DNA from: a candidate division WOR-3 bacterium
Lineage (GTDB): Bacteria > Hydrothermota > Tepidihabitantia > Tepidihabitantales > Tepidihabitantaceae
Length of the DNA stretch: 64,000 bases
Assembly (NCBI GenBank): GCA_965648905.1
Contig: CBFGIT010000010.1
Coordinates: 43,914 to 107,913, forward strand
Direction of reading: 5' to 3'
Below, piece by piece: positions 15,130 through 46,077 of this stretch; the stretch's first letter is position 1, and every line of letters starts with the position of its first letter. The position numbers and the translations under genes were made by a program. The notes under the pieces are model-generated. The model made no database searches, had not been told where the DNA came from, and saw only the letters and a program-made list of their open reading frames with translations.

Positions 15130-16569
15130 CTACCGCGCTGAGCCGGGCGCGAACAGCCGCCTCAAGTACAGCCTGACCGCGGCCCCGAACTTGCGCCAGC
15201 TCGCCCGCTGGAACAGCTTGCCGAGCAGCGTCTTGACTCCGGCCCAGCCTCCGAATCGCTGGCGGATGATGCGCAGCCTGATGGCCGAGAGTTCATCGAC
15301 GCCAAGCTCGGGCTGCAGGAGCAGAGGAATCGATGGGTCCTGGCTCAGGTCGACAAGGCGCGGGTCAGAGTACTCCTCGCTCCACGAGAAGCCGGCAGGC
15401 AGCAGGCCGTGTTCTCGGGCATAGGTCTCAAGGTGCGTTCCCGGGTAGATGCGGACGCCCGCGCCACAGGCAAGGGTGGAGATGCGCTTGCGGTGTTTCT
15501 CGACGAACCGGAACGTCTGCTCGACATCGGCCATGGTCTCTGCAATGTGGCCCATGGAGAAAAAGACCTTGGTCTTGAGTCCCAGGTCGGCGCACCAGCC
15601 GAGCAGTTCTTCGGCTCGCTCTAGACGGAACCCCTTACACATCGCGTCGAGCACGCGCTGACTGGCTGACTCGATGCCGAAGTCGACGTAGTAGCAGCCT
15701 GCCCGCTGCATCCTCTCAAGCAGGGGCAGGTCAACCGTGCCGACCCTGATTTCGCACTCCCAGGGGAAACTGAGGCCCCGGCGTTCGATTTCGGCACAGA
15801 TGCCTTCGATGTGGGGCCGGCGCAGGGTGATGGTCGAGTCAAAGAACCTGATGCCCTCGTAGCCGTACTTATCCATGAGCAGTTGGACCTGGTCGAGCAC
15901 ATACCCGGCCGAGTGGCAGGTAACGTCATGTCCGTACATCGCGCTGGCCGAGCAGAAGGTGCACTGCATGGTGCAGCCGCGCGAGGAGATGAACGCGATG
16001 CCGCGCTTGTTCAGGAATTCCATCCTGAGTGCGTAGCGGTTCATCGCCAGCAGGTCCCAGGCCGGGCCGGGCAGCGAGTCGAGGTGCTGGATGCGCACCG
16101 GCGGCCCGGTTTCGACGATGCCGCGGTTCTGCCGGAACAGCAGACCCGGGACGCGGGTGAGCTCAGCCGGTCCTGTCCTCAACGTACGCAGAATGACGGT
16201 CATGCTCTCTTCGCCTTCTCCCCGCACCACGATGTCGATGTCGGGCACGTGAGCGAGCGTGTCGCGGCCGGTGAACGAGGCATGGACGCCTCCGAAGACC
16301 GTCCTGATTTCGGAGCTGAAACACTTGACCCGGCGGGCGATGTCGAAGCTCTGGTAGCGCGTGTGGGTTGTGCCGGAGATCCCGACCACGCGCGGCTGGA
16401 GTTCGGCAAGGTGTTTCTCCAGGGGCTGTTGTTCGACTTCGTAGTCGAGGAGTTTCACCGAGAATCCCCCTGCCCGGGCGTGGGCCGCAATGTAGGCCAG
16501 GCCGAGCGGCGGTATCAGCTCGAACGGAGTTCCCCGTTCCTTGGGGTTTACCAGCAACAGGTCAATCAT
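15130..16569 (-). CDS. Cobalamin-binding radical SAM protein
   Basis: PPLGLAYIAA, GGVHASF, VVRGEGE, SRGCTMQCTFC (CxxxCxxC), FGIESASQ. Confidence 0.93.
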   Translation of the reverse strand: MIDLLLVNPKERGTPFELIPPLGLAYIAAHARAGGFSVKLLDYEVEQQPLEKHLAELQPRVVGISGTTHTRYQSFDIARRVKCFSSEIRTVFGGVHASFTGRDTLAHVPDIDIVVRGEGEESMTVILRTLRTGPAELTRVPGLLFRQNRGIVETGPPVRIQHLDSLPGPAWDLLAMNRYALRMEFLNKRGIAFISSRGCTMQCTFCSASAMYGHDVTCHSAGYVLDQVQLLMDKYGYEGIRFFDSTITLRRPHIEGICAEIERRGLSFPWECEIRVGTVDLPLLERMQRAGCYYVDFGIESASQRVLDAMCKGFRLERAEELLGWCADLGLKTKVFFSMGHIAETMADVEQTFRFVEKHRKRISTLACGAGVRIYPGTHLETYAREHGLLPAGFSWSEEYSDPRLVDLSQDPSIPLLLQPELGVDELSAIRLRIIRQRFGGWAGVKTLLGKLFQRASWRKFGAAVRLYLRRLFAPGSAR

Positions 16570-16677
16570 GCGAAGTCTGGCGAATGATAGGAGGGCACGG
16601 GCCGGCTGTCAAAGGAACCGGCCGGGTCCAAGACCCGGCGGGCTTGATTCGGCACGTTGCTCTGCTATAGTCCGACC

Positions 16678-17154
16678 GTGGATAGCACTCACATCCTCGA
16701 AGCCGCGGGTCGGTTTCACGGCCATATCGGGCCCTGGCTTGCTCTTGGCGTTCGGGCCGGTCTGCTGGCCATGGAACGGCTCGGAGCCTCCCACTTTGGC
16801 CTTGGGGCCGACGTGCGCTGCCCGGAGCGCACTCCCTACACGTGTTTCCTTGACGGCATTCAATTCAGCACCGGCTGTACCATGGGCAAGGGTAACATCC
16901 GCCATCTTGTTGCTGAAGGCTGCTCGGTCGTTTTCTCGACCAGCGGAAAAGGTCTGCCGGGTCGCACGTTGGAACTGGGGGTTGCGCCGGACCTGTGGGC
17001 CGAGTTACACGAAGACCGTCAACTGAACGATCGGCAGGTGACTTTGCTCGGCTATGACGTGTTCGAGAGGCCGACTGAGTCTCTGTTCCGGGAATACCCA
17101 CCCGATACGAATTCCGAAACCAGCAGCACCGGACCGGAGTCTAACGAGCCGTAA
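16678..17154 (+). CDS. FmdE-family protein
   Basis: RFHGHIGPWLALG and CFLDGIQFSTGCTMGKGN; GTG start 6 nt after TTGATT-N16-TATAGT. Confidence 0.85.
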   Translation: MDSTHILEAAGRFHGHIGPWLALGVRAGLLAMERLGASHFGLGADVRCPERTPYTCFLDGIQFSTGCTMGKGNIRHLVAEGCSVVFSTSGKGLPGRTLELGVAPDLWAELHEDRQLNDRQVTLLGYDVFERPTESLFREYPPDTNSETSSTGPESNEP

Positions 17155-17175
17155 CCCAATCAGGAGGTGAGCAAT

Positions 17176-17625
17176 ATGGCTCGTAATCTAGTTACCTGGG
17201 ACCCGTTCCGTGAGATGACTTCGATGCGGGACGAAATGGAACGGCTCTTTGATAACATGCTCGGTCGCTATCCGCGCGAGCGGGCTGATGCATTCTGGGT
17301 GCCGTCGGTTGACGTCGAAGAGAGCAACGAGGCGGTGACGGTTCGTGCCGAGATTCCCGGCATGAAGAAGGACGACATCAAAGTGACGGTGTCGGATGAC
17401 CTGGTCACCATCAGCGGCGAACGCAAGCATGAAGTCGAGCAGAAGGACAAGACCTTTCACCGCATCGAGCGCGTCTACGGCAAGTTCCAGCGCACGATCG
17501 GCCTGCCGGCTGATGTCGAGGGCGACAAGGCCAAGGCCAGCTACAAGGCCGGAGTACTTGAGCTGGTTCTGCCCAAGTCGGCCAAAGCCCGGGCCCACGA
17601 AGTACAGATAAAGGCCGAGGAATAG
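17176..17625 (+). CDS. Hsp20/alpha-crystallin small heat shock protein
   Basis: WDPFRE, PSVDVEE, AEIPGM, ISGER, ERVYGKFQR, ASYKAGVLEL; RBS AGGAGGTG. Confidence 0.95.
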   Translation: MARNLVTWDPFREMTSMRDEMERLFDNMLGRYPRERADAFWVPSVDVEESNEAVTVRAEIPGMKKDDIKVTVSDDLVTISGERKHEVEQKDKTFHRIERVYGKFQRTIGLPADVEGDKAKASYKAGVLELVLPKSAKARAHEVQIKAEE

Positions 17626-17648: not shown

Positions 17649-17677
17649 GGACCCGCCTTCGGGCGGGTCCTTCTGTT
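17649..17677 (+). terminator. Intrinsic terminator after hsp20
   Basis: GGACCCGCC-TTCG-GGCGGGTCC followed by TTCTGTT. Confidence 0.8.
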
Positions 17678-17779: not shown

Positions 17780-19978
17780 ATGATGAAGTTCTGCTTACTG
17801 GCAGTCTGGGTCGGTGTTGCCCAGGCCGCCTGGATTTCAGTTGGTCCGGATGGCGGGTACGTCCAGGCGTTTGGCGTTGACCCGCAGGCACACGAGCATC
17901 TCTACGCGGCCTGCTATGACTACCCGGAGAACTCAAGGCTGTTTCGTTCGACCGATGCCGGCGCATCCTGGGCGCTGCTGGGTACGATTCCTTATCCGTC
18001 GGTTACAGCTCTGGCGGTTGACCCGTTTGATGCGCGTTTCATCTACGTTGCCGCACGCGGGTCAGGACTGTACCGCTCGGACGACGGCGGTGCGAGCTGG
18101 CGCATGTATAGTCTGCCCGGTCAAGCCAATGCATTCGACTGGAGCACGGGCGTGGCCGGTCGGATCGTTGCTGGCGGCTACTACCTGTCAGGCGGCAGCT
18201 ACCGGGCGGCACTGTTCGTTTCGACCGACCGTGGGGCAACGTGGTCGGTGTCAATGCCGCGGCCGGATACGGTGTTCTACGCCTATGCCTGTGCCGCAGA
18301 CCCATCCCGGCCTGGGACCGTGTATCTGGGCAGCAGCTCAGGTTACCTGCATCTTACCACTAATGGCGGCAGCACGTGGACTCTTGTTAACTCGGGCCTG
18401 CCGTCGACCGCGACGACCATGAGTCTGGCGGTCAACTCGGACGGCAGCGCAGTGCTGGCCGGGACCAGCGCCGGCATATACCGCAGCACAAACCAGGGTG
18501 CAAGCTGGACACTGGGTACGGGCTCGCCCGGCTCGGTGACGAGCGTCACTTTCTCGCCGGCAGACGCGCGGTACGCCTGGACCCTGGGCCGGACTGATTC
18601 GATGCGGGTCATGGTTTCGACCGACGCGGGCAGTCGCTGGACCGTACCGGTGCCGGGCTTTGTGACGCTCAAGACCGCAACCCTCGTGCCCGACCCGGCG
18701 ACCCCAACCTGCGCTTACCTCGGTACCCAGACCGGGGTCTTTCGTTCGACCGACATGGGCGCAATCTGGAACCCGGCGCATACCGGTTTGCGTATCGCCA
18801 AGATTTCGACGATCGCGGCCGGGCCCTGGAACAGCGAACGGGCCTACCTTGAAGTATCTGAAAACGGTGTCTTCAAGACTCTGAACCGGGGCTCGAACTG
18901 GACCCGGTGCAACGACTTCCTTTCCTGCGGTAACATCTGTGGAATCGGGGTACTGACCGAATCCGGCGGCGACGTCTTGTACGCGCTTGAGGGCTCGGGC
19001 TGAGGCAACGCCGAGCTCTTCAAGAGCACGGACGGCGGTGCCGTCTGGATAGAAATCGAAAGCTACTACGGTGAGGGCGGGGCCTGCATCGGTCATCCGG
19101 ATTCGCTCAGGACCCTGCTTACCGGGGGGCAGGGCGCGGCAGCAGACAGCTACGGGTTCGTCGTTTCAACTTCCTTCAATGCCGGACAGAGCTGGCTGAG
19201 GAGGCGCATGGCTTATCCGTGTCGCGGCTACTGCAATGCGCTGGCCGTACGTACCGGGACAGACCGGGCCGTGTACGCAGGCGGGTGGGTTAACTTCCCG
19301 ACTGGAACGTCTGGTGCGGTCCTGAAGTCTACCGACTTTGGCGCGACGTGGGAATCGTTGCCCGGTCCTCTGCCTGATACGGTGTTCGGCATTGTGGCCG
19401 ACGACCAGGACGGGCCTTTGGTCTTCTGCGCGACGACGAGCGGTGTCTATCGCACGACCAACGAAGGGCAGAGCTGGACCAGAGTGCTGGGTCAGCGCGG
19501 AATGCGGGCATTGGCTCGGGCTGGAACGCGCTGTGCCGCGGCCGGAGATTCCGGGGTCTGGGTGACCACGGACCAGGGCGCAAGCTGGGTCAAACTCGAT
19601 TCCGGCCTTGGTTCGACCAGGGTGAACTGCCTTGAGTTCATGGCCGGAGCTGATGACTGGCTCTGGCTATTGGCCGGCACTCACGGCAGGGCAGTGTTCT
19701 ACTGGGACTTCGGGCCGACCGCGGCCGCGGGGCCTTGCGTTCCGGTCGGGTGCAGGATACCAGCGTCGGTGCTGCGCGCCCGGCTGGTTCTGGATCTGGA
19801 GCAGGGGTCAAGGGTTCGGTTACTTGATGCTGCGGGCCGGACCGTGCTCAGCAGGCGTCTGCACCGGGGTCGGGCAGAGCTGGATGTTTCGTATCTGCCT
19901 GCCGGTCTCTACTTTGTGCAGCGGACCGACGTAGAGTCCGGCAAGTCGGTTACGACCAAGGTCGTGGTCGAGCGCTAG
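17780..19978 (+). CDS. Secreted Asp-box (BNR/VPS10-like) beta-propeller protein with T9SS-like C-terminal domain; one in-frame TGA at 19001-19003 (putative selenocysteine)
   Basis: ORFs 17780-19003 and 19208-19978 share a frame, and the 68 codons between them are open and continue the SxDGGxxW repeat pattern (GNAELFKSTDGGAVW). Confidence 0.75.
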
Positions 19979-26012: not shown

Positions 26013-27698
26013 CTACTGGTCGGCGCGAACGAGCTTCAGCTCGCGGCCGTCGTCGGTCCGGCAGAACCAGACTCCAGGCGGCAGAGAGCCGAGCCTTAAG
26101 GACACGCCAGATTGCAGATTGGGGATTGCAGATTGCAGGACCAGGCGGCCGGCCGGGTCGTAGATGGAGAGAGTGATGAGTGGTGAGTGATGAGCGATGG
26201 GTCGAGGAGTGAGGAGGATCTCGACAAGGTCGCGCACCGGGTTGGGTCGGGCTGAGAGTCCGGCGAGTCGCTCTAGTCCGGCAGGCGCGGCAGCGCCGAC
26301 CGGCGTGGTGTTGAGGAACAGGTGGTTGCCGTTCGGCTGGTCCCAGTTGGTGACGACCAGGTCCGGATGAGTCGAAACCCGGGTGAAGAACCGGACCTGG
26401 CTTGACTCGGGCGGCGGGTTCGCAAAGCTGACCCAGGCGCCCAGCAGGTCGCAGCAGTAGCCGGAGCGCGGAACCGGCACGCCGTTGACCTTGATGCTGT
26501 CGAGAGACTGGAGCGGGCCGGTCTTGCGGATGGTGAACAGACTGGTTCGGCCGTCACCGGTGACCGCCACTTCGCAAGGGACAAGGTGCGAGTTATTGAT
26601 GTCGGCCCAGACCAGGGCTTCGCAGACCAGGTCATACCGGTTGGCCGGAGACCAGGACCAGGTTGCAACCGTATCGAGCACGCCGGCCCGGTTCTCAAAC
26701 ACGACCGCAGGACGCCACCAGCCGCCTGCGGCCAGCTCCGGGTACCCGTCGCCGTTCGCGTCGGCCCAGGCAACACACGAGGAGTAGAGGCTTGAACCCT
26801 GGCGCAGCATGTTGAAAGTGGCGATGGTGTCGAACGTGCCCTGGTTGTTGTGAAACACCTTGATGCTGTTCGGGTCGCCAAGCTGGTCGTTGCAGGCTGC
26901 GGCAAGGTCGAGCCAGCCGTCCAGGTCATAGTCGCCGAACGCCAGGCGCAGGCACCAGCCGATGTTCCGGGTCGCAACCCAGGAAGGGGTATTCTCCAGC
27001 ACGCCGGAGTTGTTCCGGTACATCGAGATGCGTCGGCGCTGGCCGACAAAAAGGTCAAGGTCGCCGTCGTTGTCGATGTCGCAGAGTCGGATGGCGTCGG
27101 ACGGAGTGCCCTGGTTCGCGGTCCAGAACGGCAGCGTGTCGAGCACGCCCGAGTTGTTGCGGTAAACTCGGGCTGAATCGGTTGAGCCGGTATAGGCGTC
27201 GCCCGCCGAGATGGCGAGGTCCAGGTCGCCGTCAAGGTCAATGTCGCCCAGGCAGCAGTCGAACGAGGAGTGCTGGTCACGGGCCCGCCAGTACGGCGCA
27301 GGCGAGAGCGTGTTGCCCGAGTTGCGGTACACCCGGGCGAGGAAGTCGCCGGCCGTCCCGGCCCCGAGGTAGCCGACCGCGAGGTCGTCAAGCCCGTCGT
27401 TGTCGATGTCGCCGGCATAGCAGTGGCCGAAGTAGCCGTTGTCGGACGAGCGCCAGGAAGCACCGGACTCAAGCGTACCGCCCCGGTTCAGATAGACCGA
27501 GTTCTGGTTCAGGGCCATGTCGTTGCCGTTCGATACACACAGGTCGAGAAAGCCGTTGGTATCGACGTCGGCAACCGCACCGCCGGTTGAATAGTCGTTG
27601 TCGTTTGATGTCCAGTTCGGAGCCGAAGGCAGCGGGACCAGAGCCGGTGCAGCAGACCAGGCAATCAGGACCAGACCCAGGACGCTCAGTTTGCGCAT
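26013..27698 (-). CDS. Secreted FG-GAP/VCBS-repeat protein with T9SS-like C-terminal domain
   Basis: Signal peptide; repeated (G)DxDxDGxxDL; C-terminal PNP...YDPAGRLV...LPPGVWF. Confidence 0.82.
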   Translation of the reverse strand: MRKLSVLGLVLIAWSAAPALVPLPSAPNWTSNDNDYSTGGAVADVDTNGFLDLCVSNGNDMALNQNSVYLNRGGTLESGASWRSSDNGYFGHCYAGDIDNDGLDDLAVGYLGAGTAGDFLARVYRNSGNTLSPAPYWRARDQHSSFDCCLGDIDLDGDLDLAISAGDAYTGSTDSARVYRNNSGVLDTLPFWTANQGTPSDAIRLCDIDNDGDLDLFVGQRRRISMYRNNSGVLENTPSWVATRNIGWCLRLAFGDYDLDGWLDLAAACNDQLGDPNSIKVFHNNQGTFDTIATFNMLRQGSSLYSSCVAWADANGDGYPELAAGGWWRPAVVFENRAGVLDTVATWSWSPANRYDLVCEALVWADINNSHLVPCEVAVTGDGRTSLFTIRKTGPLQSLDSIKVNGVPVPRSGYCCDLLGAWVSFANPPPESSQVRFFTRVSTHPDLVVTNWDQPNGNHLFLNTTPVGAAAPAGLERLAGLSARPNPVRDLVEILLTPRPIAHHSPLITLSIYDPAGRLVLQSAIPNLQSGVSLRLGSLPPGVWFCRTDDGRELKLVRADQ

Positions 27699-27754
27699 AG
27701 TGGGCCAGTCTAGTTCATTTCGCCACCAGGGTCAAGCCGGCCGTCGGCCCGGTG

Positions 27755-29242
27755 CTACCTGGTCAGAACGACCCGGTGCGTGCGGCCGGATGCGCTCGGG
27801 ACAAAGTAGACACCGGGCGTAAGGCGGGAAAGGTCGTTGGCACCAGGCCGAAGCGACCGGACACGACGGCCGGTGGCATCGACCAGGTCGGTTGTCTGAT
27901 TGCCGGCGAGAAGCAGGATTCGGCTTACGACCGTGGCCGGCTCGGCAGCGCGAATGCGGGCCGGGCCAAGGGTTTCGGCCAGAGCAGTCGGAACCCGGGC
28001 CTTGAGCGTGCCGTCACCAACCAGGCACATGCCGTAGAACCACGACTGCTCCCAGGGCTCAAGGCCGTCCATCATGCGCCAGTAGAACCAGACAACCAGC
28101 GCCTCGGCCAGGGGCCGACCCTCGAACAGAGCGTAGTAGAAGTCCTCAAACCGGAGCATCGAGCCGGTCTTGGTCGAGCCGACCGCGCCCAGTCCGGTTG
28201 AGGTCTGGAACACATAGCAGCCGCCGCAGAAGTTACGCTCGACAAATCGGGCGTTGGAACAGGCGAAGAGATTGTAGAAATTCGCGCACGGGTCGAGTCC
28301 GGCAATCTGGTCGGCGTAGAAGTAGTCCCAGTTCTGGCCGTTGTTATATTTCATTGCGTGGCCGCCCGGCCAGGAATGAGAGCAGAGCTGAATCCACTGG
28401 TAGGCGGCAGTGTCAATCCGGGGACGATAGTCGCGGACCCGGGTCGTTTCGCGCTGCCAGACAAAGACCCGCTCCGGGTACAGATACCCGACCGCATAGT
28501 CCCACTCCGACGCATAGGGAACCCAGTCGTCGTCGATGTAGACCAGGGCCCGGTCAGTGACCGGCAGGTCGCCGTTCCGATACCGGTGGTTCCGGGAAAG
28601 ATAGCGGCTGAGCAGGGTGACTTCGTTGCCGACCACGGATGCAGGCAGACGCGAAACCGCCAGTTCGGGCACGATGTCGCCGTCGTGCTGGTCGTAGATG
28701 CCGTCGGCGCCCGAGACCAGACTGTCAAGGGTATCGAGTCGCACCATCTGGTCGGCCCAGTTGCCGTTGATGTCGGCGAAGAAAAGGTCACAGGGGAACT
28801 CCTCGTAGCCCTCGTCCGGGTCGCGGCGGCGGTTTGAATTCCAGTCGTCAATCATCTGGAACCAGGCCACCGGCAGGTCGCCGACGAGCACGGCATGACG
28901 CACGCCCAGCTCGTACTCGCGGGCAAGGAAAGCCCGGAGCGACTCAGCCGACGTGGCTGCGACCGAATAGAGCATCGGCGCATGGCCTTCCTGGACAAGG
29001 TCGGCAAAGAGCGTGTCGAGCTGCAACCGGAGCGGGGCGACAAGCTCCTCTTCAATCAGCACGTCGACCCCGGGTTCGAGCCGGGGCCCGACCGAAGAAA
29101 TCGGCCGGATGCGCCAGACCGGGCCTGCGGGTCGGGATTCAAGCCAGGATGAATAGCTCAGCGGCCGCGAGCTGTCCGGGCTCTGCCAGCGCAGGACCTG
29201 GACCGAAGGAACGGCGACCAGAGCGAAGATGAGAGCGAACAC
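27755..29242 (-). CDS. Secreted C25 (gingipain-like) cysteine peptidase-domain protein with C-terminal sorting domain
   Basis: VLVGDLP, DLFFADING, PELAVSRLP, SHS...FACSN (His/Cys dyad), LVGDGTL, DATGRRV...PGVYFV. Confidence 0.7.
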   Translation of the reverse strand: MFALIFALVAVPSVQVLRWQSPDSSRPLSYSSWLESRPAGPVWRIRPISSVGPRLEPGVDVLIEEELVAPLRLQLDTLFADLVQEGHAPMLYSVAATSAESLRAFLAREYELGVRHAVLVGDLPVAWFQMIDDWNSNRRRDPDEGYEEFPCDLFFADINGNWADQMVRLDTLDSLVSGADGIYDQHDGDIVPELAVSRLPASVVGNEVTLLSRYLSRNHRYRNGDLPVTDRALVYIDDDWVPYASEWDYAVGYLYPERVFVWQRETTRVRDYRPRIDTAAYQWIQLCSHSWPGGHAMKYNNGQNWDYFYADQIAGLDPCANFYNLFACSNARFVERNFCGGCYVFQTSTGLGAVGSTKTGSMLRFEDFYYALFEGRPLAEALVVWFYWRMMDGLEPWEQSWFYGMCLVGDGTLKARVPTALAETLGPARIRAAEPATVVSRILLLAGNQTTDLVDATGRRVRSLRPGANDLSRLTPGVYFVPSASGRTHRVVLTR

Positions 29243-43489: not shown

Positions 43490-46077
43490 GTCTCTCTGAG
43501 CAGGTCGCCCGCTACATGAGCCTGCGTGAGCCGCAGGCTGAGGCGCTTTCGGTGCTTGAGAGCATCAGCGAGGGACTGGACTACAGGTCGGCGCAACTGG
43601 CGGCAGTGGCAGAAAAGGCGACCGGCCTGAGTCGAGGCGCAAGGCCGGTCGAGTTCGACACCGAGTTTCCGTCGTTCTGCTTCGCCCTTGCGACCGGCGT
43701 GGGTAAGACGCGGCTGATGGGCGCGTGCGTGTATCACCTCTGGAAGTCAAAGGGCTACCGAAACTTCTTCATCCTCGCCCCGGGCATGACCATCTACGAC
43801 AAGCTGCGGGCCGAGCTTGAGCCGAGCCACCCGAAGTACATGTTCGTGGGCTTGTCCGACTTCCCCGCGCCTGCGGTGTATGACGGTGACAGCTACCTGC
43901 GGTTCGATGCCCGGCCCAGGCTATTCGAGGAGAAACAGGCGAACGTCTTTGTGTTCAACATCGGCAAGATATTCGCGCCGAAAACCGACCGCCAATTCAA
44001 GTTCCACCGGTTCAACGAGAACCTGGGCGCTGCATTCTCGGACGTACTGCGGCAGATGGGCGACCTGGTCGTGCTGATGGACGAGAGCCACCGGTATCGG
44101 GGCGAGGCGTCCCTCAAGGCAATCAACGACTTGAAGCCGGTGCTGGGGCTTGAGTTCACGGCCACGCCCAAGTACCAGAGGAACGTCATCTACTCATTCG
44201 GTCTGGCTCAGGCCATCGGCCGGTTCGTGAAGACGCCCACCGTTGTCACCCGCACGAACCTGACTACCTCTGACAAGCAGGAGATGGAGCGCCTGAAGCT
44301 CCAGGACGGCATGACCCGCCATGAGGCCAAGAAGGCGCGGCTGGCCGAGTACTGCGCGGCCGGCCGGAAGGAACTGGTCAAGCCGTTCGTGCTGGTCTCC
44401 ACCGCGGATACGGAACACGCCGGCAGGATACGCGCGCTCGTCGAGTCGGAGAGCTTCTGCGAAGGAAGATACAAGGGCAAGGTGATTGAGATACACTCCG
44501 GTAAGACCGGAGCGGAGAGCGATGAGAACGTACAGCGGTTGCTGGAGGTCGAACTCCCTACCAGCACGGTGGAGGTTGTGATTCACGTGAACATGCTCAA
44601 GGAGGGCTGGGACGTGAAGAACCTGTACACCATCGTGCCCTTGCGAGCGTCAGTGAGCGATATTCTGACTGAACAGACCATCGGTCGCGGATTGCGACTG
44701 CCGTTCGGCACGCCAACCGGCATTCAGGACCTTGATGAATTGGAGATAATGTCGCACGACAACTACGCGAAGCTCATTGAGGCAGCTAAGGGGAGTCCGC
44801 TGTTTCACTTCAAGGAGCTTCCACCCGAAGACTTGCGCCCGGTGAAGACCGTGCAGGTGCAGCATGGATTCCTGGACCTGGATAAGGTGTTGGATAGAGC
44901 TGATGCGCTCGCCAACGATATCTTCACCGGTGACCTGCCGGTCGACGAGCGGATAGACACCGTGGTGGATGCCGTTGTCCGCGAGATGGCCGAAGCGCAC
45001 GAGATAAGAGCCAGAGCGCACGAAGCCGGTGTAGAACCTGTCGTAACGCCGGCGCAGGCCGAGATGTTCGCTCTGCCCGAGGCCCCGAAGCTGGGCGAGA
45101 AGTTCGACTCTGAGCAGGCGCGGGCGGCACTGACCAAACGGCTGACCATGTTCTTCGACAGGGCCATCCGCGTACCGCGCATTGACATGGAGGTTGTGAC
45201 CGAGCGAACACTCATGCCCTTCCTCGCAAAGGTGACTCGCGGGCCATTCTCGCTGGTGAAACAGCACCTGCAGACGGGCGTCCTCCCAACCGGAGAGGTC
45301 AGGCAAGGTGAGGAGGTTGAGGTTCTGGCGATAGACAACCCGCGCGGGTTCCTTGCCGGCAAGCTGATTGATGCCATTGAGGAGCTCGATGCGCCAGGCG
45401 ACAAGGAAGTCGCTCTGAGGCTGGTGGACGAATACATGGCCGGGATGGGGGCATCCGCAGAGGACTTGCCCAGGCTGGTGCACCTGTATCGGGACGTGAT
45501 AGTCGAGGACCTGCGCGGGCAGGTTGAGGCCCACCTGAAGGAGCACACAAACAGCAAGCCGGTTGTGAGGAGCGGATTCATCAAGTTCCGCCCATCAACG
45601 AAGGCCGTGTTGGAGAAGGACGGCATCAGGCAGTTCCGAGATGACGTGCCACGCGCCGACGTACCCAAGTATGCTTTCGAGGGGTACACAAAGACCATCT
45701 ACACCTTGGTGTCGTACGACTCAACACCGGAGAAGGACTTCGCGACTGCTTTGGAAGATGACCCGGAGGTCCTGAAGTGGGTTCGGCCGCCCGACGGCAA
45801 CATCCCGATACGCGCCGGCGGCAGCAACTACAACCCGGACTTCATAGTCGAGACTGCCGACCGGAAGTACATCGTTGAAGTCAAACGCCGGAGCGAACTG
45901 CTTCCGAAGATGGACGAAGAGGTTCGTCACAAGGCGCTGGCTGCGACCAGGTGGTGCGAGGTCGCGAGTGCCGTGCCCAACTCGAAGCCCTGGGAGTACA
46001 AGCTTATCCCCGACGACGTCATCCTCCCCGGTCGCAACTTCGCCTTCATCATCAGCCACGCCGTGAGGGGTTGGTAG
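43486..46077 (+). CDS. res: Type III R-M restriction subunit (Res)
   Basis: LATGVGKT, MDESHRY, FTATP, LKEGWDV, QTIGRGLR; C-terminal YNPDFIVE...IVEVK; ATGA overlap with mod. Confidence 0.92.
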   Translation: MSLSEQVARYMSLREPQAEALSVLESISEGLDYRSAQLAAVAEKATGLSRGARPVEFDTEFPSFCFALATGVGKTRLMGACVYHLWKSKGYRNFFILAPGMTIYDKLRAELEPSHPKYMFVGLSDFPAPAVYDGDSYLRFDARPRLFEEKQANVFVFNIGKIFAPKTDRQFKFHRFNENLGAAFSDVLRQMGDLVVLMDESHRYRGEASLKAINDLKPVLGLEFTATPKYQRNVIYSFGLAQAIGRFVKTPTVVTRTNLTTSDKQEMERLKLQDGMTRHEAKKARLAEYCAAGRKELVKPFVLVSTADTEHAGRIRALVESESFCEGRYKGKVIEIHSGKTGAESDENVQRLLEVELPTSTVEVVIHVNMLKEGWDVKNLYTIVPLRASVSDILTEQTIGRGLRLPFGTPTGIQDLDELEIMSHDNYAKLIEAAKGSPLFHFKELPPEDLRPVKTVQVQHGFLDLDKVLDRADALANDIFTGDLPVDERIDTVVDAVVREMAEAHEIRARAHEAGVEPVVTPAQAEMFALPEAPKLGEKFDSEQARAALTKRLTMFFDRAIRVPRIDMEVVTERTLMPFLAKVTRGPFSLVKQHLQTGVLPTGEVRQGEEVEVLAIDNPRGFLAGKLIDAIEELDAPGDKEVALRLVDEYMAGMGASAEDLPRLVHLYRDVIVEDLRGQVEAHLKEHTNSKPVVRSGFIKFRPSTKAVLEKDGIRQFRDDVPRADVPKYAFEGYTKTIYTLVSYDSTPEKDFATALEDDPEVLKWVRPPDGNIPIRAGGSNYNPDFIVETADRKYIVEVKRRSELLPKMDEEVRHKALAATRWCEVASAVPNSKPWEYKLIPDDVILPGRNFAFIISHAVRGW

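Follow-up and report, generated by a model that had tools for sequence, protein, structure and literature searches.

A predicted family of exported double beta-propeller selenoproteins, with a conserved in-frame UGA, in WOR-3, Stahlbacteria and Fermentibacteria lineages

The 64,000-nucleotide stretch of DNA analysed here (the window; positions 43,914 to 107,913 of contig CBFGIT010000010.1 in the candidate division WOR-3 assembly GCA_965648905.1) carries on its forward strand, at 17780..19978, a gene whose single in-frame UGA, at codon 408, is very probably decoded as selenocysteine (Sec). Judged from its sequence and that of its relatives, this is a working selenoprotein gene and one member of a predicted family, and we consider it highly likely, at very nearly the same level, that Sec decoding and a new family of exported double beta-propeller selenoproteins, missing from the catalogues so far, hold together. 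A first-pass annotation of the window had proposed a 732-codon frame with one UGA, and that frame is borne out: the ATG-initiated open reading frame (ORF) 17780..19003 (407 aa) halts at the TGA at 19001-19003, beyond which the frame is open until a TAG at 19976-19978, and translation through the TGA yields 732 residues, of which only U408 is recoded, in the context LYALEGSG-U-GNAELFKSTDGGAVW. By eye, an AGGAG lies 6 nt ahead of the start codon; the first ATG past the TGA comes 69 codons downstream and heads the ORF 19208..19978. The window sits on contig C10 of a 3.0-Mb genome that is 99.6% complete and contains three copies of the gene, with one TGA in each. The TGA, the hairpin that follows it and the nearby cysteines are each conserved across the family, which is more than chance would give.

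Conservation of the UGA was followed in a survey of 41 genomes, comprising 40 relatives and the window's own. Exactly one TGA is found in 48 listed matches, among them all 46 with E <= 7.5e-54, and it is absent from weaker homologues at about 31% identity or less. The alignment covers 43 of the 48 TGA-form matches, from 24 related genomes, and omits L022 (three additional TAGs), L080, two partial matches (G029:C60, at a contig end, and G008:C35) and G017:C1. In all 43 aligned relatives the TGA occupies one column within the motif (A/M)LEGSG-U-GxAELF(K/R)STDGGxVW, and the alignment runs across the junction ungapped and in one frame, in proteins that are 30-67% identical. Past the TGA the frame is under protein-level constraint, with G433, G450, G502, G521, W524 and others invariant. 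A DNA pattern over the region in which the Sec codon was left open as NNN, run against a 185,579-species collection of public genomes, gave at least 78 distinct matches, and among the matches listed 77 have TGA at the site; these 77 loci have long open frames on both sides unless a contig end intervenes, typically about 400 codons before and about 320 after. The other listed match (L120, in a genome titled Krumholzibacteriia) is a chance fit to the pattern, with GTC at the site in an unrelated protein. Among 272 genomes of the phylum, a degenerate protein-level motif with TGA returned 120 matches in 64 genomes, confined to six families of one class, and a reversed-pattern control returned 0 matches in the same 272. 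The homologues in these three sets thus carry TGA and not the Trp, Arg or Gly by which the annotation had proposed to recognise a simple nonsense mutation.

Members occur in genomes titled Stahlbacteria, WOR-3, Fermentibacteria, Fermentibacteraceae, Hyd24-12, Sabulitectum and Aegiribacteria. Three of these genomes (titled Fermentibacteraceae, Hyd24-12 and Aegiribacteria) contribute matches additional to the 120 of the phylum set, and the family thus extends beyond that set. One public contig (G150:C29) holds a tandem array of at least four members spaced about 2.3-2.6 kb apart (L087, L088, L130 and L131), in a genome with 8 motif matches in total. L022 (G001:C27:4724-6874) is a same-genus orthologue, 66% identical to the window protein over its full length in one frame, and retains the TGA and both of the hairpins described below. 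Words of 31 nt from the 65-nt segment 18985-19049 also occur in metagenome contigs from sludge, wastewater, sediment, soil and biofilm in 14 studies, including one metatranscriptome library with four such contigs of up to 2286 nt; all come from relatives and not from the window organism.

The genome encodes the machinery that Sec insertion requires, the subject of the annotation's proposed check on selA, selB, selC and selD. It has a tRNA-Sec (72.2 bits; called SeC (tca) by ARAGORN), SelA (482.5 bits) and a SelB wing domain (64.8 bits, in a 700-residue frame), with all matches to the Sec machinery above their curated cut-offs. There are in addition two selD genes (C4:87631-88554 and C8:88040-88942), each with its own in-frame TGA (AG-U-A.K), and the copy on C8 directly adjoins selB (C8:89016-89141). 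SelA is present in 38 of the 41 surveyed genomes, and among the listed matches the three without it (G014, G022 and G027) contribute no TGA-form member; this co-occurrence is only consistent with Sec decoding and is not a test of it, as related genomes are not independent. The premise that TGA is otherwise an ordinary stop also holds: TGA ends 478 of the 1082 stop-to-stop frames of at least 400 codons in the genome, and of 13 neighbouring genes supported by Pfam, 3 end in TGA and 0 have an internal one.

The RNA that follows the UGA is constrained as well, with 83% mean column identity over 43 genes in the first 60 nt, and it contains two hairpins. The second of them (hairpin 2) is the structure that the first-pass annotation had proposed as resembling a selenocysteine insertion sequence (SECIS), written in DNA as CGGACGGC-GGT-GCCGTCTG at 19029-19047; it is present, as an 8-bp stem capped by a GGU loop beginning 33 nt past the UGA, and folded alone it has an energy of -11.8 kcal/mol. 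The bacterial SECIS model set out in section 5 of a 2026 review (PMC13188914) describes a loop of 3-9 nt, a stem of 4-16 bp, a G in the first two loop positions, a distance of 16-37 nt from the UGA and a minimum free energy (MFE) of -7.5 kcal/mol or below, and hairpin 2 falls within that section's description on all four counts of loop, G, spacing and energy. It also covaries. In the 43-sequence alignment its core (19031-19045) has changes on both sides in five of six pairs (15 cells), a level reached by 0 of 500 shuffles, with swaps such as GAC..GUC to ACU..AGU, AGC..GCU or AAC..GUU, and 91% of its cells pair, against 33-43% with slid partners. Hairpin 1, closer to the UGA, has four pairs (G-C, C-G, U-A and C-G) that are identical in all 43 sequences, and RNAalifold independently recovers the cores of both hairpins. 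Since hairpin 2 agrees with every criterion of the SECIS model and hairpin 1 departs from two, hairpin 2 is the likely SelB site.

This constraint is visible in codon choice. Across 63 conserved columns of four- or six-fold degeneracy in 40 sequences (three genes running off contigs were dropped), codon entropy identifies only three frozen columns, Leu413 (CTC in 40/40), Ser416 (AGC in 40/40) and Gly419 (GGC in 37/38), all of which are stem positions; the other 60 vary, and the codon of Gly420, whose third base lies in the hairpin 2 loop, is free. Leu413 is CTC in 120/120 phylum matches, although the search pattern permitted YTN. The same overlap extends to the protein, in which Val precedes Trp in the Asp-box under hairpin 2 (GG-x-V-W) in 85/101 members, whereas the remaining twelve Asp-boxes of the window protein mostly have Ser or Thr there. 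We attribute the Val to the SECIS overlapping the codons of that one box, where Val GUC pairs with Asp GAC. A long-range helix between alignment columns 10-19 and 39-48, favoured by the MFE fold of the window sequence on its own, was rejected for want of covariation, its observed values being reached by 203 to 244 of 500 shuffles. A comparison with the hairpins of the genome's two selD genes found them unlike, with no common motif.

The protein that would result from read-through has the features of an exported two-propeller scaffold (Table 1). Pfam assigns Sortilin-Vps10 (PF15902, 110.9 bits, cut-off 33) and BNR (PF02012, 54.2 bits, cut-off 27) as well as PSII_BNR, and an AlphaFold2 model built on 26 of 91 distinct full-length members has a mean predicted local distance difference test score (pLDDT) of 88.3 and a predicted template modelling score (pTM) of 0.79. 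The signal-peptide region is modelled as a helix at residues 2-13 with low pLDDT, and homologues open in the same way, with a hydrophobic stretch followed by W.(S/P)(I/V)GP.GG. At the other end, the C-terminal sorting domain proposed in the annotation, of the type A class of the type IX secretion system (T9SS), just passes the TIGR04183 cut-off (23.8 bits against 23), and Pfam PF18962, at 20.7, stays under its cut-off of 27. The genome also has a gene for the SprA translocon (SprA_N, 68.4 bits, in a 1903-residue frame), so that the proposed export is supported by the sorting-domain match and the SprA gene, together with a signal peptide recognised by eye at the N-terminus. A scan of the window protein with NCBIfam gave no hit to a selenoprotein model.

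Table 1. Features of the predicted selenoprotein gene, in window positions
Feature	Position	Strand	Basis or remark
Complete predicted selenoprotein gene	17780..19978	+	732 codons then TAG stop; own transcription unit
Putative signal peptide, residues 1-16 (MMKFCLLAVWVGVAQA, then AW)	17780..17827	+	By eye
Double beta-propeller, 13 Asp-box repeats, ~14 blades, GH74-like fold	17831..19717	+	Pfam, AlphaFold2, Foldseek
CGNIC, codons 383-387, Cys pair conserved with Sec	18926..18940	+	101-member alignment
UGA predicted to be read as selenocysteine (U408)	19001..19003	+	Loop EGSG-U-GN between strands 397-404 and 411-416
Hairpin 1, GCUCU-UCA-AGAGC	19015..19027	+	Begins 11 nt past UGA; four invariant pairs
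Hairpin 2, SECIS-like, CGGACGGC-GGU-GCCGUCUG	19029..19047	+	Overlaps Asp-box codons T-D-G-G-A-V-W
T9SS type A C-terminal sorting domain, residues 671-730	19790..19969	+	TIGR04183, marginal

The residues around the UGA are conserved in a manner that suggests a functional site. The Cys-rich segment that the annotation had placed upstream of the UGA, CNDFLSCGNIC, corresponds to residues 377-387, 21-31 residues before U408, and the aligned TGA-form relatives have an L(S/A)CGN(I/V)C stretch about 25 residues upstream of the UGA column. Over 101 family members, E404, L413, S416, G420 and W423 are invariant (101/101) and C383 and C387 are kept in 98/101 and 97/101, while the EGSGUG loop and the Cys pair are both missing from 18/18 non-TGA homologues. 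In the AlphaFold2 model C383 and C387 start strand 386-394 of the blade that holds U408, the ninth of about 14 by Asp-box count. Propeller blades usually follow an up-down topology that puts the start of strand 1 on one face with the loop between strands 2 and 3, and U408 would accordingly sit in a Gly-rich loop (E404, invariant, followed by G-S-G-U-G) facing the same side of blade 9 as C383-x3-C387. Tentatively, U408, C383 and C387 may form one site on the GH74-like scaffold, serving either as a selenenylsulfide/thiol redox centre or as a binding site for a soft metal or metalloid; the Se-S bond suggested in the first-pass annotation would belong to the former. A bolder and more doubtful proposal is that the three residues constitute the catalytic or ligand centre of an undescribed extracellular chemistry, a selenium-sulfur or selenium-metal centre in the GH74-like substrate cleft that is delivered by the T9SS and for which Sec would be indispensable, to the point that the family has no Cys form at all. 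Further cysteines are conserved in part, namely a CC pair after DGG at window residues 435-436 (19082-19087) in 22/101 members, and C377, C170 and C617 (as alignment columns) in 35-40/101 each; their distribution suggests subfamily-specific disulfides or an extended site.

We propose a model in which SelB with Sec-tRNA-Sec docks on hairpin 2 while the ribosome is at the UGA, leading to insertion of selenocysteine. The second propeller and the C-terminal sorting domain would be present in the read-through product only. As that product alone would have the sorting domain, only the Sec-containing protein would be exported through the Sec translocon and then carried to the cell surface by type IX secretion. 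The mechanism of Sec insertion is itself the ordinary bacterial one; what is unusual about the family, which is new to the catalogues, is its fold, location, copy number and lack of Cys forms.

Several observations weigh against Sec decoding or against the site proposed around it. Cys-containing homologues are the usual corroboration for a predicted selenoprotein, though not a strict requirement, and here the same motif with TGY had 0 matches in the 272 phylum genomes, while 33 candidates gave 10 hits, none of them a full-length protein with Cys in that position; nine break off at the TGA as fragments, and P0161, the last of the ten, mismatches the Sec loop. Only one full-length relative, P0076 (745 aa), has a sense codon in place of the UGA, for Leu, and it reads EGSG-L-GAAELFKSTDGGSSW. 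It came from a profile search with the 95-position Sec region against 1.84 billion representatives, which gave 75,578 hits, mostly multi-repeat BNR proteins; P0076 was the only useful sequence among the best 150, which have 7-26 matched stretches each. Hairpin 1 falls short of the SECIS model in having a loop without G and an energy of -5.8 kcal/mol, and the 33-nt spacing between the UGA and hairpin 2 is near the upper limit of the 16-37 range. The family loci have no conserved redox partner beside them, whether thioredoxin, Dsb or cytochrome, and the nearness of C383 and C387 to U408 on one blade face is deduced from strand topology alone. L022 has three in-frame TAGs, two of them aligned to Y27 and Q29 of the window protein, and is either a fresh pseudogene or a sign that TAG is odd in that assembly. 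Finally, the window's own stretch was found in no public read run (19 runs, each sharing 0.05 of the sampled words); the contigs from 4 runs that cover about 18985-19049 are those of relatives, with no difference listed at 19001-19003, including one RNA library, a result that speaks neither for transcription of the gene nor for the base in this assembly.

These points must be set against what each competing explanation would have to accommodate. A nonsense mutation, a pseudogene or a sequencing or assembly error in an ordinary BNR-repeat gene would agree with public gene callers splitting the gene at the TGA, and the TAGs of L022 show that single copies do decay, yet the same codon recurs in the same column throughout the alignment and in pattern matches from independent assemblies, the downstream half is conserved as protein, and synonymous sites after the TGA are frozen. 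A base error in one assembly is ruled out as the cause because the codon is common to many independent assemblies, and a single contaminating sequence is excluded by the 30-67% identities among TGA copies; the probability left to mutation or error is close to negligible. It is scarcely more probable that the TGA is a true stop, with the second propeller translated separately from the ORF at 19208..19978. The presence of that ATG-initiated ORF would allow it, but the 68 codons between the TGA and its ATG are among the best conserved and stay in frame (GxAELFKSTDGGxVW...DGG), the junction is uninterrupted in all 43 relatives, and the split would leave a C-terminal half without a signal peptide and an N-terminal half without a sorting domain.

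Programmed read-through of the UGA by something other than Sec, for example near-cognate insertion of Trp, Cys or Arg stimulated by the hairpins, is very unlikely in our assessment, though less remote than either of these. The lack of a Cys homologue, a hairpin 1 unlike a SECIS and a Sec assignment made from sequence all leave room for it. The genome has complete Sec machinery, however, the three SelA-less relatives have no listed TGA-form member, and hairpin 2 agrees with the SECIS model in four respects; moreover, were an ordinary amino acid called for here, at least some of the roughly 200 copies should carry a sense codon, and none was seen. An alternative that accepts Sec insertion assigns it a mainly regulatory role, as a selenium-dependent gate between a truncated form without the sorting domain and a surface form. 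Such a gate would fit a sorting domain encoded downstream of the UGA, and the Leu of P0076 shows that the fold tolerates a residue other than Sec. We nonetheless regard it as improbable, because the surroundings of the Sec (E404, the Gly residues around U, and C383/C387 in 97-98/101) are as strictly conserved as an active site and are lost together in non-Sec relatives. P0076 itself is 29% identical over 726 residues, lacks the Cys pair (CGNxC) and has GGSSW in place of GGxVW. With Leu and no Cys pair, it indicates that the scaffold is able to exist without Sec, and its differences suggest that Sec, the Cys pair and the RNA constraint were gained or lost together.

As a gene, the window's case resembles canonical fdhF and selD in its single in-frame UGA, its adjacent 3' stem-loop within the coding region, a loop that starts with GG, and selA, selB, selC and selD in the genome; it differs in having an additional nucleotide-invariant hairpin between the UGA and the SECIS-like hairpin. 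Unlike canonical selenoprotein genes it has no Cys-form homologue that we could find, and its product is a 732-residue beta-propeller, not a thioredoxin-fold protein or a molybdopterin enzyme. The fold, two tandem seven-bladed Asp-box propellers over about 700 residues, is shared with GH74 xyloglucanases (6p2o, 5fkt, 2cn3 and 1sqj). The top Foldseek matches are about 20 GH74 structures (E 1e-24, TM 0.60-0.65, identity 14-19%), hidden Markov model profiles match GH74 chains up to E 1.9e-39 in alignments that run out of register because of the repeats and assign no partners to the catalytic Asp pair of the inter-domain cleft, and the NCBIfam model for the F510_1955 glycosylhydrolase scores 165.4, under its cut-off of 175. 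To our knowledge GH74 enzymes have neither Sec nor the CxxxC site. With PorZ and T9SS type A cargo the protein has in common a signal peptide, beta-propellers, a C-terminal sorting domain and SprA in the genome, and PorZ (5m11) stands at Foldseek rank 26 (E 3e-19); the window protein is not PorZ, as it reaches 20.8 on the NCBIfam PorZ model, whose cut-off is 260. Our literature search gave no T9SS cargo with Sec. Glycine reductase selenoprotein A (GrdA) is likewise a selenoprotein family with no known Cys-containing form. It is otherwise different, a small redox carrier of the cytoplasm that has a CxxU motif and bears no relation to the window protein in sequence, size or location.

The family appears to have gone unrecognised because public gene calls end at the TGA, where they yield fragments of 405-497 aa ending in ...ALEGxG that are named hypothetical, Sortilin N-terminal domain-containing or PSII stability/assembly factor-like. 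Table 1 of the review cited above (PMC13188914) lists 119 prokaryotic selenoprotein families and subfamilies, and across the whole of that table no entry is a BNR, Sortilin, propeller or T9SS protein. In the main texts of PMC13188914, the deep-Sep paper PMC12013277 and PMC9312934 such terms have no occurrence, and a full-text literature search gave nothing on BNR, beta-propeller, T9SS, WOR-3 or Fermentibacteria selenoproteins. The first-pass annotation's claim of an unusual class of exported selenoprotein therefore stands as regards the family, which is absent from these catalogues, and gives way as regards export. Export alone is not new because the same Table 1 includes envelope selenoproteins, namely a TonB-dependent receptor of FCYXU type, a GSU2204/MtrB-PioB-like outer-membrane protein, the ExtKL cytochrome and DsbA/DsbG-like proteins; going by their entries, the family is like these in having a Sec that would work outside the cytoplasm, and differs from them in fold and motif. 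Most known prokaryotic selenoproteins are, by that review, thioredoxin-fold or otherwise redox-type, and compared with most of them the family stands out as a large, exported, repeat-built scaffold that is abundant, multi-copy and without a Cys counterpart.

Should the doubtful proposal of a centre in which Sec is indispensable prove true, the family would be the first T9SS-exported selenoenzyme, present in multiple copies (up to 8 paralogues, with tandem arrays) in anaerobic uncultured WOR-3, Stahlbacteria and Fermentibacteria lineages, and a SECIS written into an Asp-box would have reshaped the protein sequence of that repeat. Because annotation cuts its members in two, the predicted proteomes of these uncultured lineages would miss a major surface protein and undercount selenium use. 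The 65-nt segment from the UGA to the SECIS is conserved enough to be used as a probe, a family without Cys forms lends itself well to testing what Sec can achieve beyond Cys, and the placement of a SECIS over a protein repeat motif offers a clean case of RNA and protein constraints acting on the same bases.

The genomic setting is consistent with a gene transcribed on its own. The upstream Hsp20 gene ends in a terminator-like hairpin (17649-17670), and the PMT_2-family gene downstream lies in convergent orientation; a sigma-70 promoter scan at the gene found none. Beside the family genes lie other sorting-domain proteins or tandem paralogues. The only large cluster of neighbours was rejected, as single linkage had merged tandem paralogues with unrelated proteins that have the sorting domain in common. 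Farther downstream in the window (26013-29242) lie FG-GAP repeat proteins and a Peptidase_C25 protein, and the upstream neighbours (15130-17625) encode Hsp20, an FmdE-domain protein and a B12-binding radical SAM protein; none of these showed a link to the selenoprotein.

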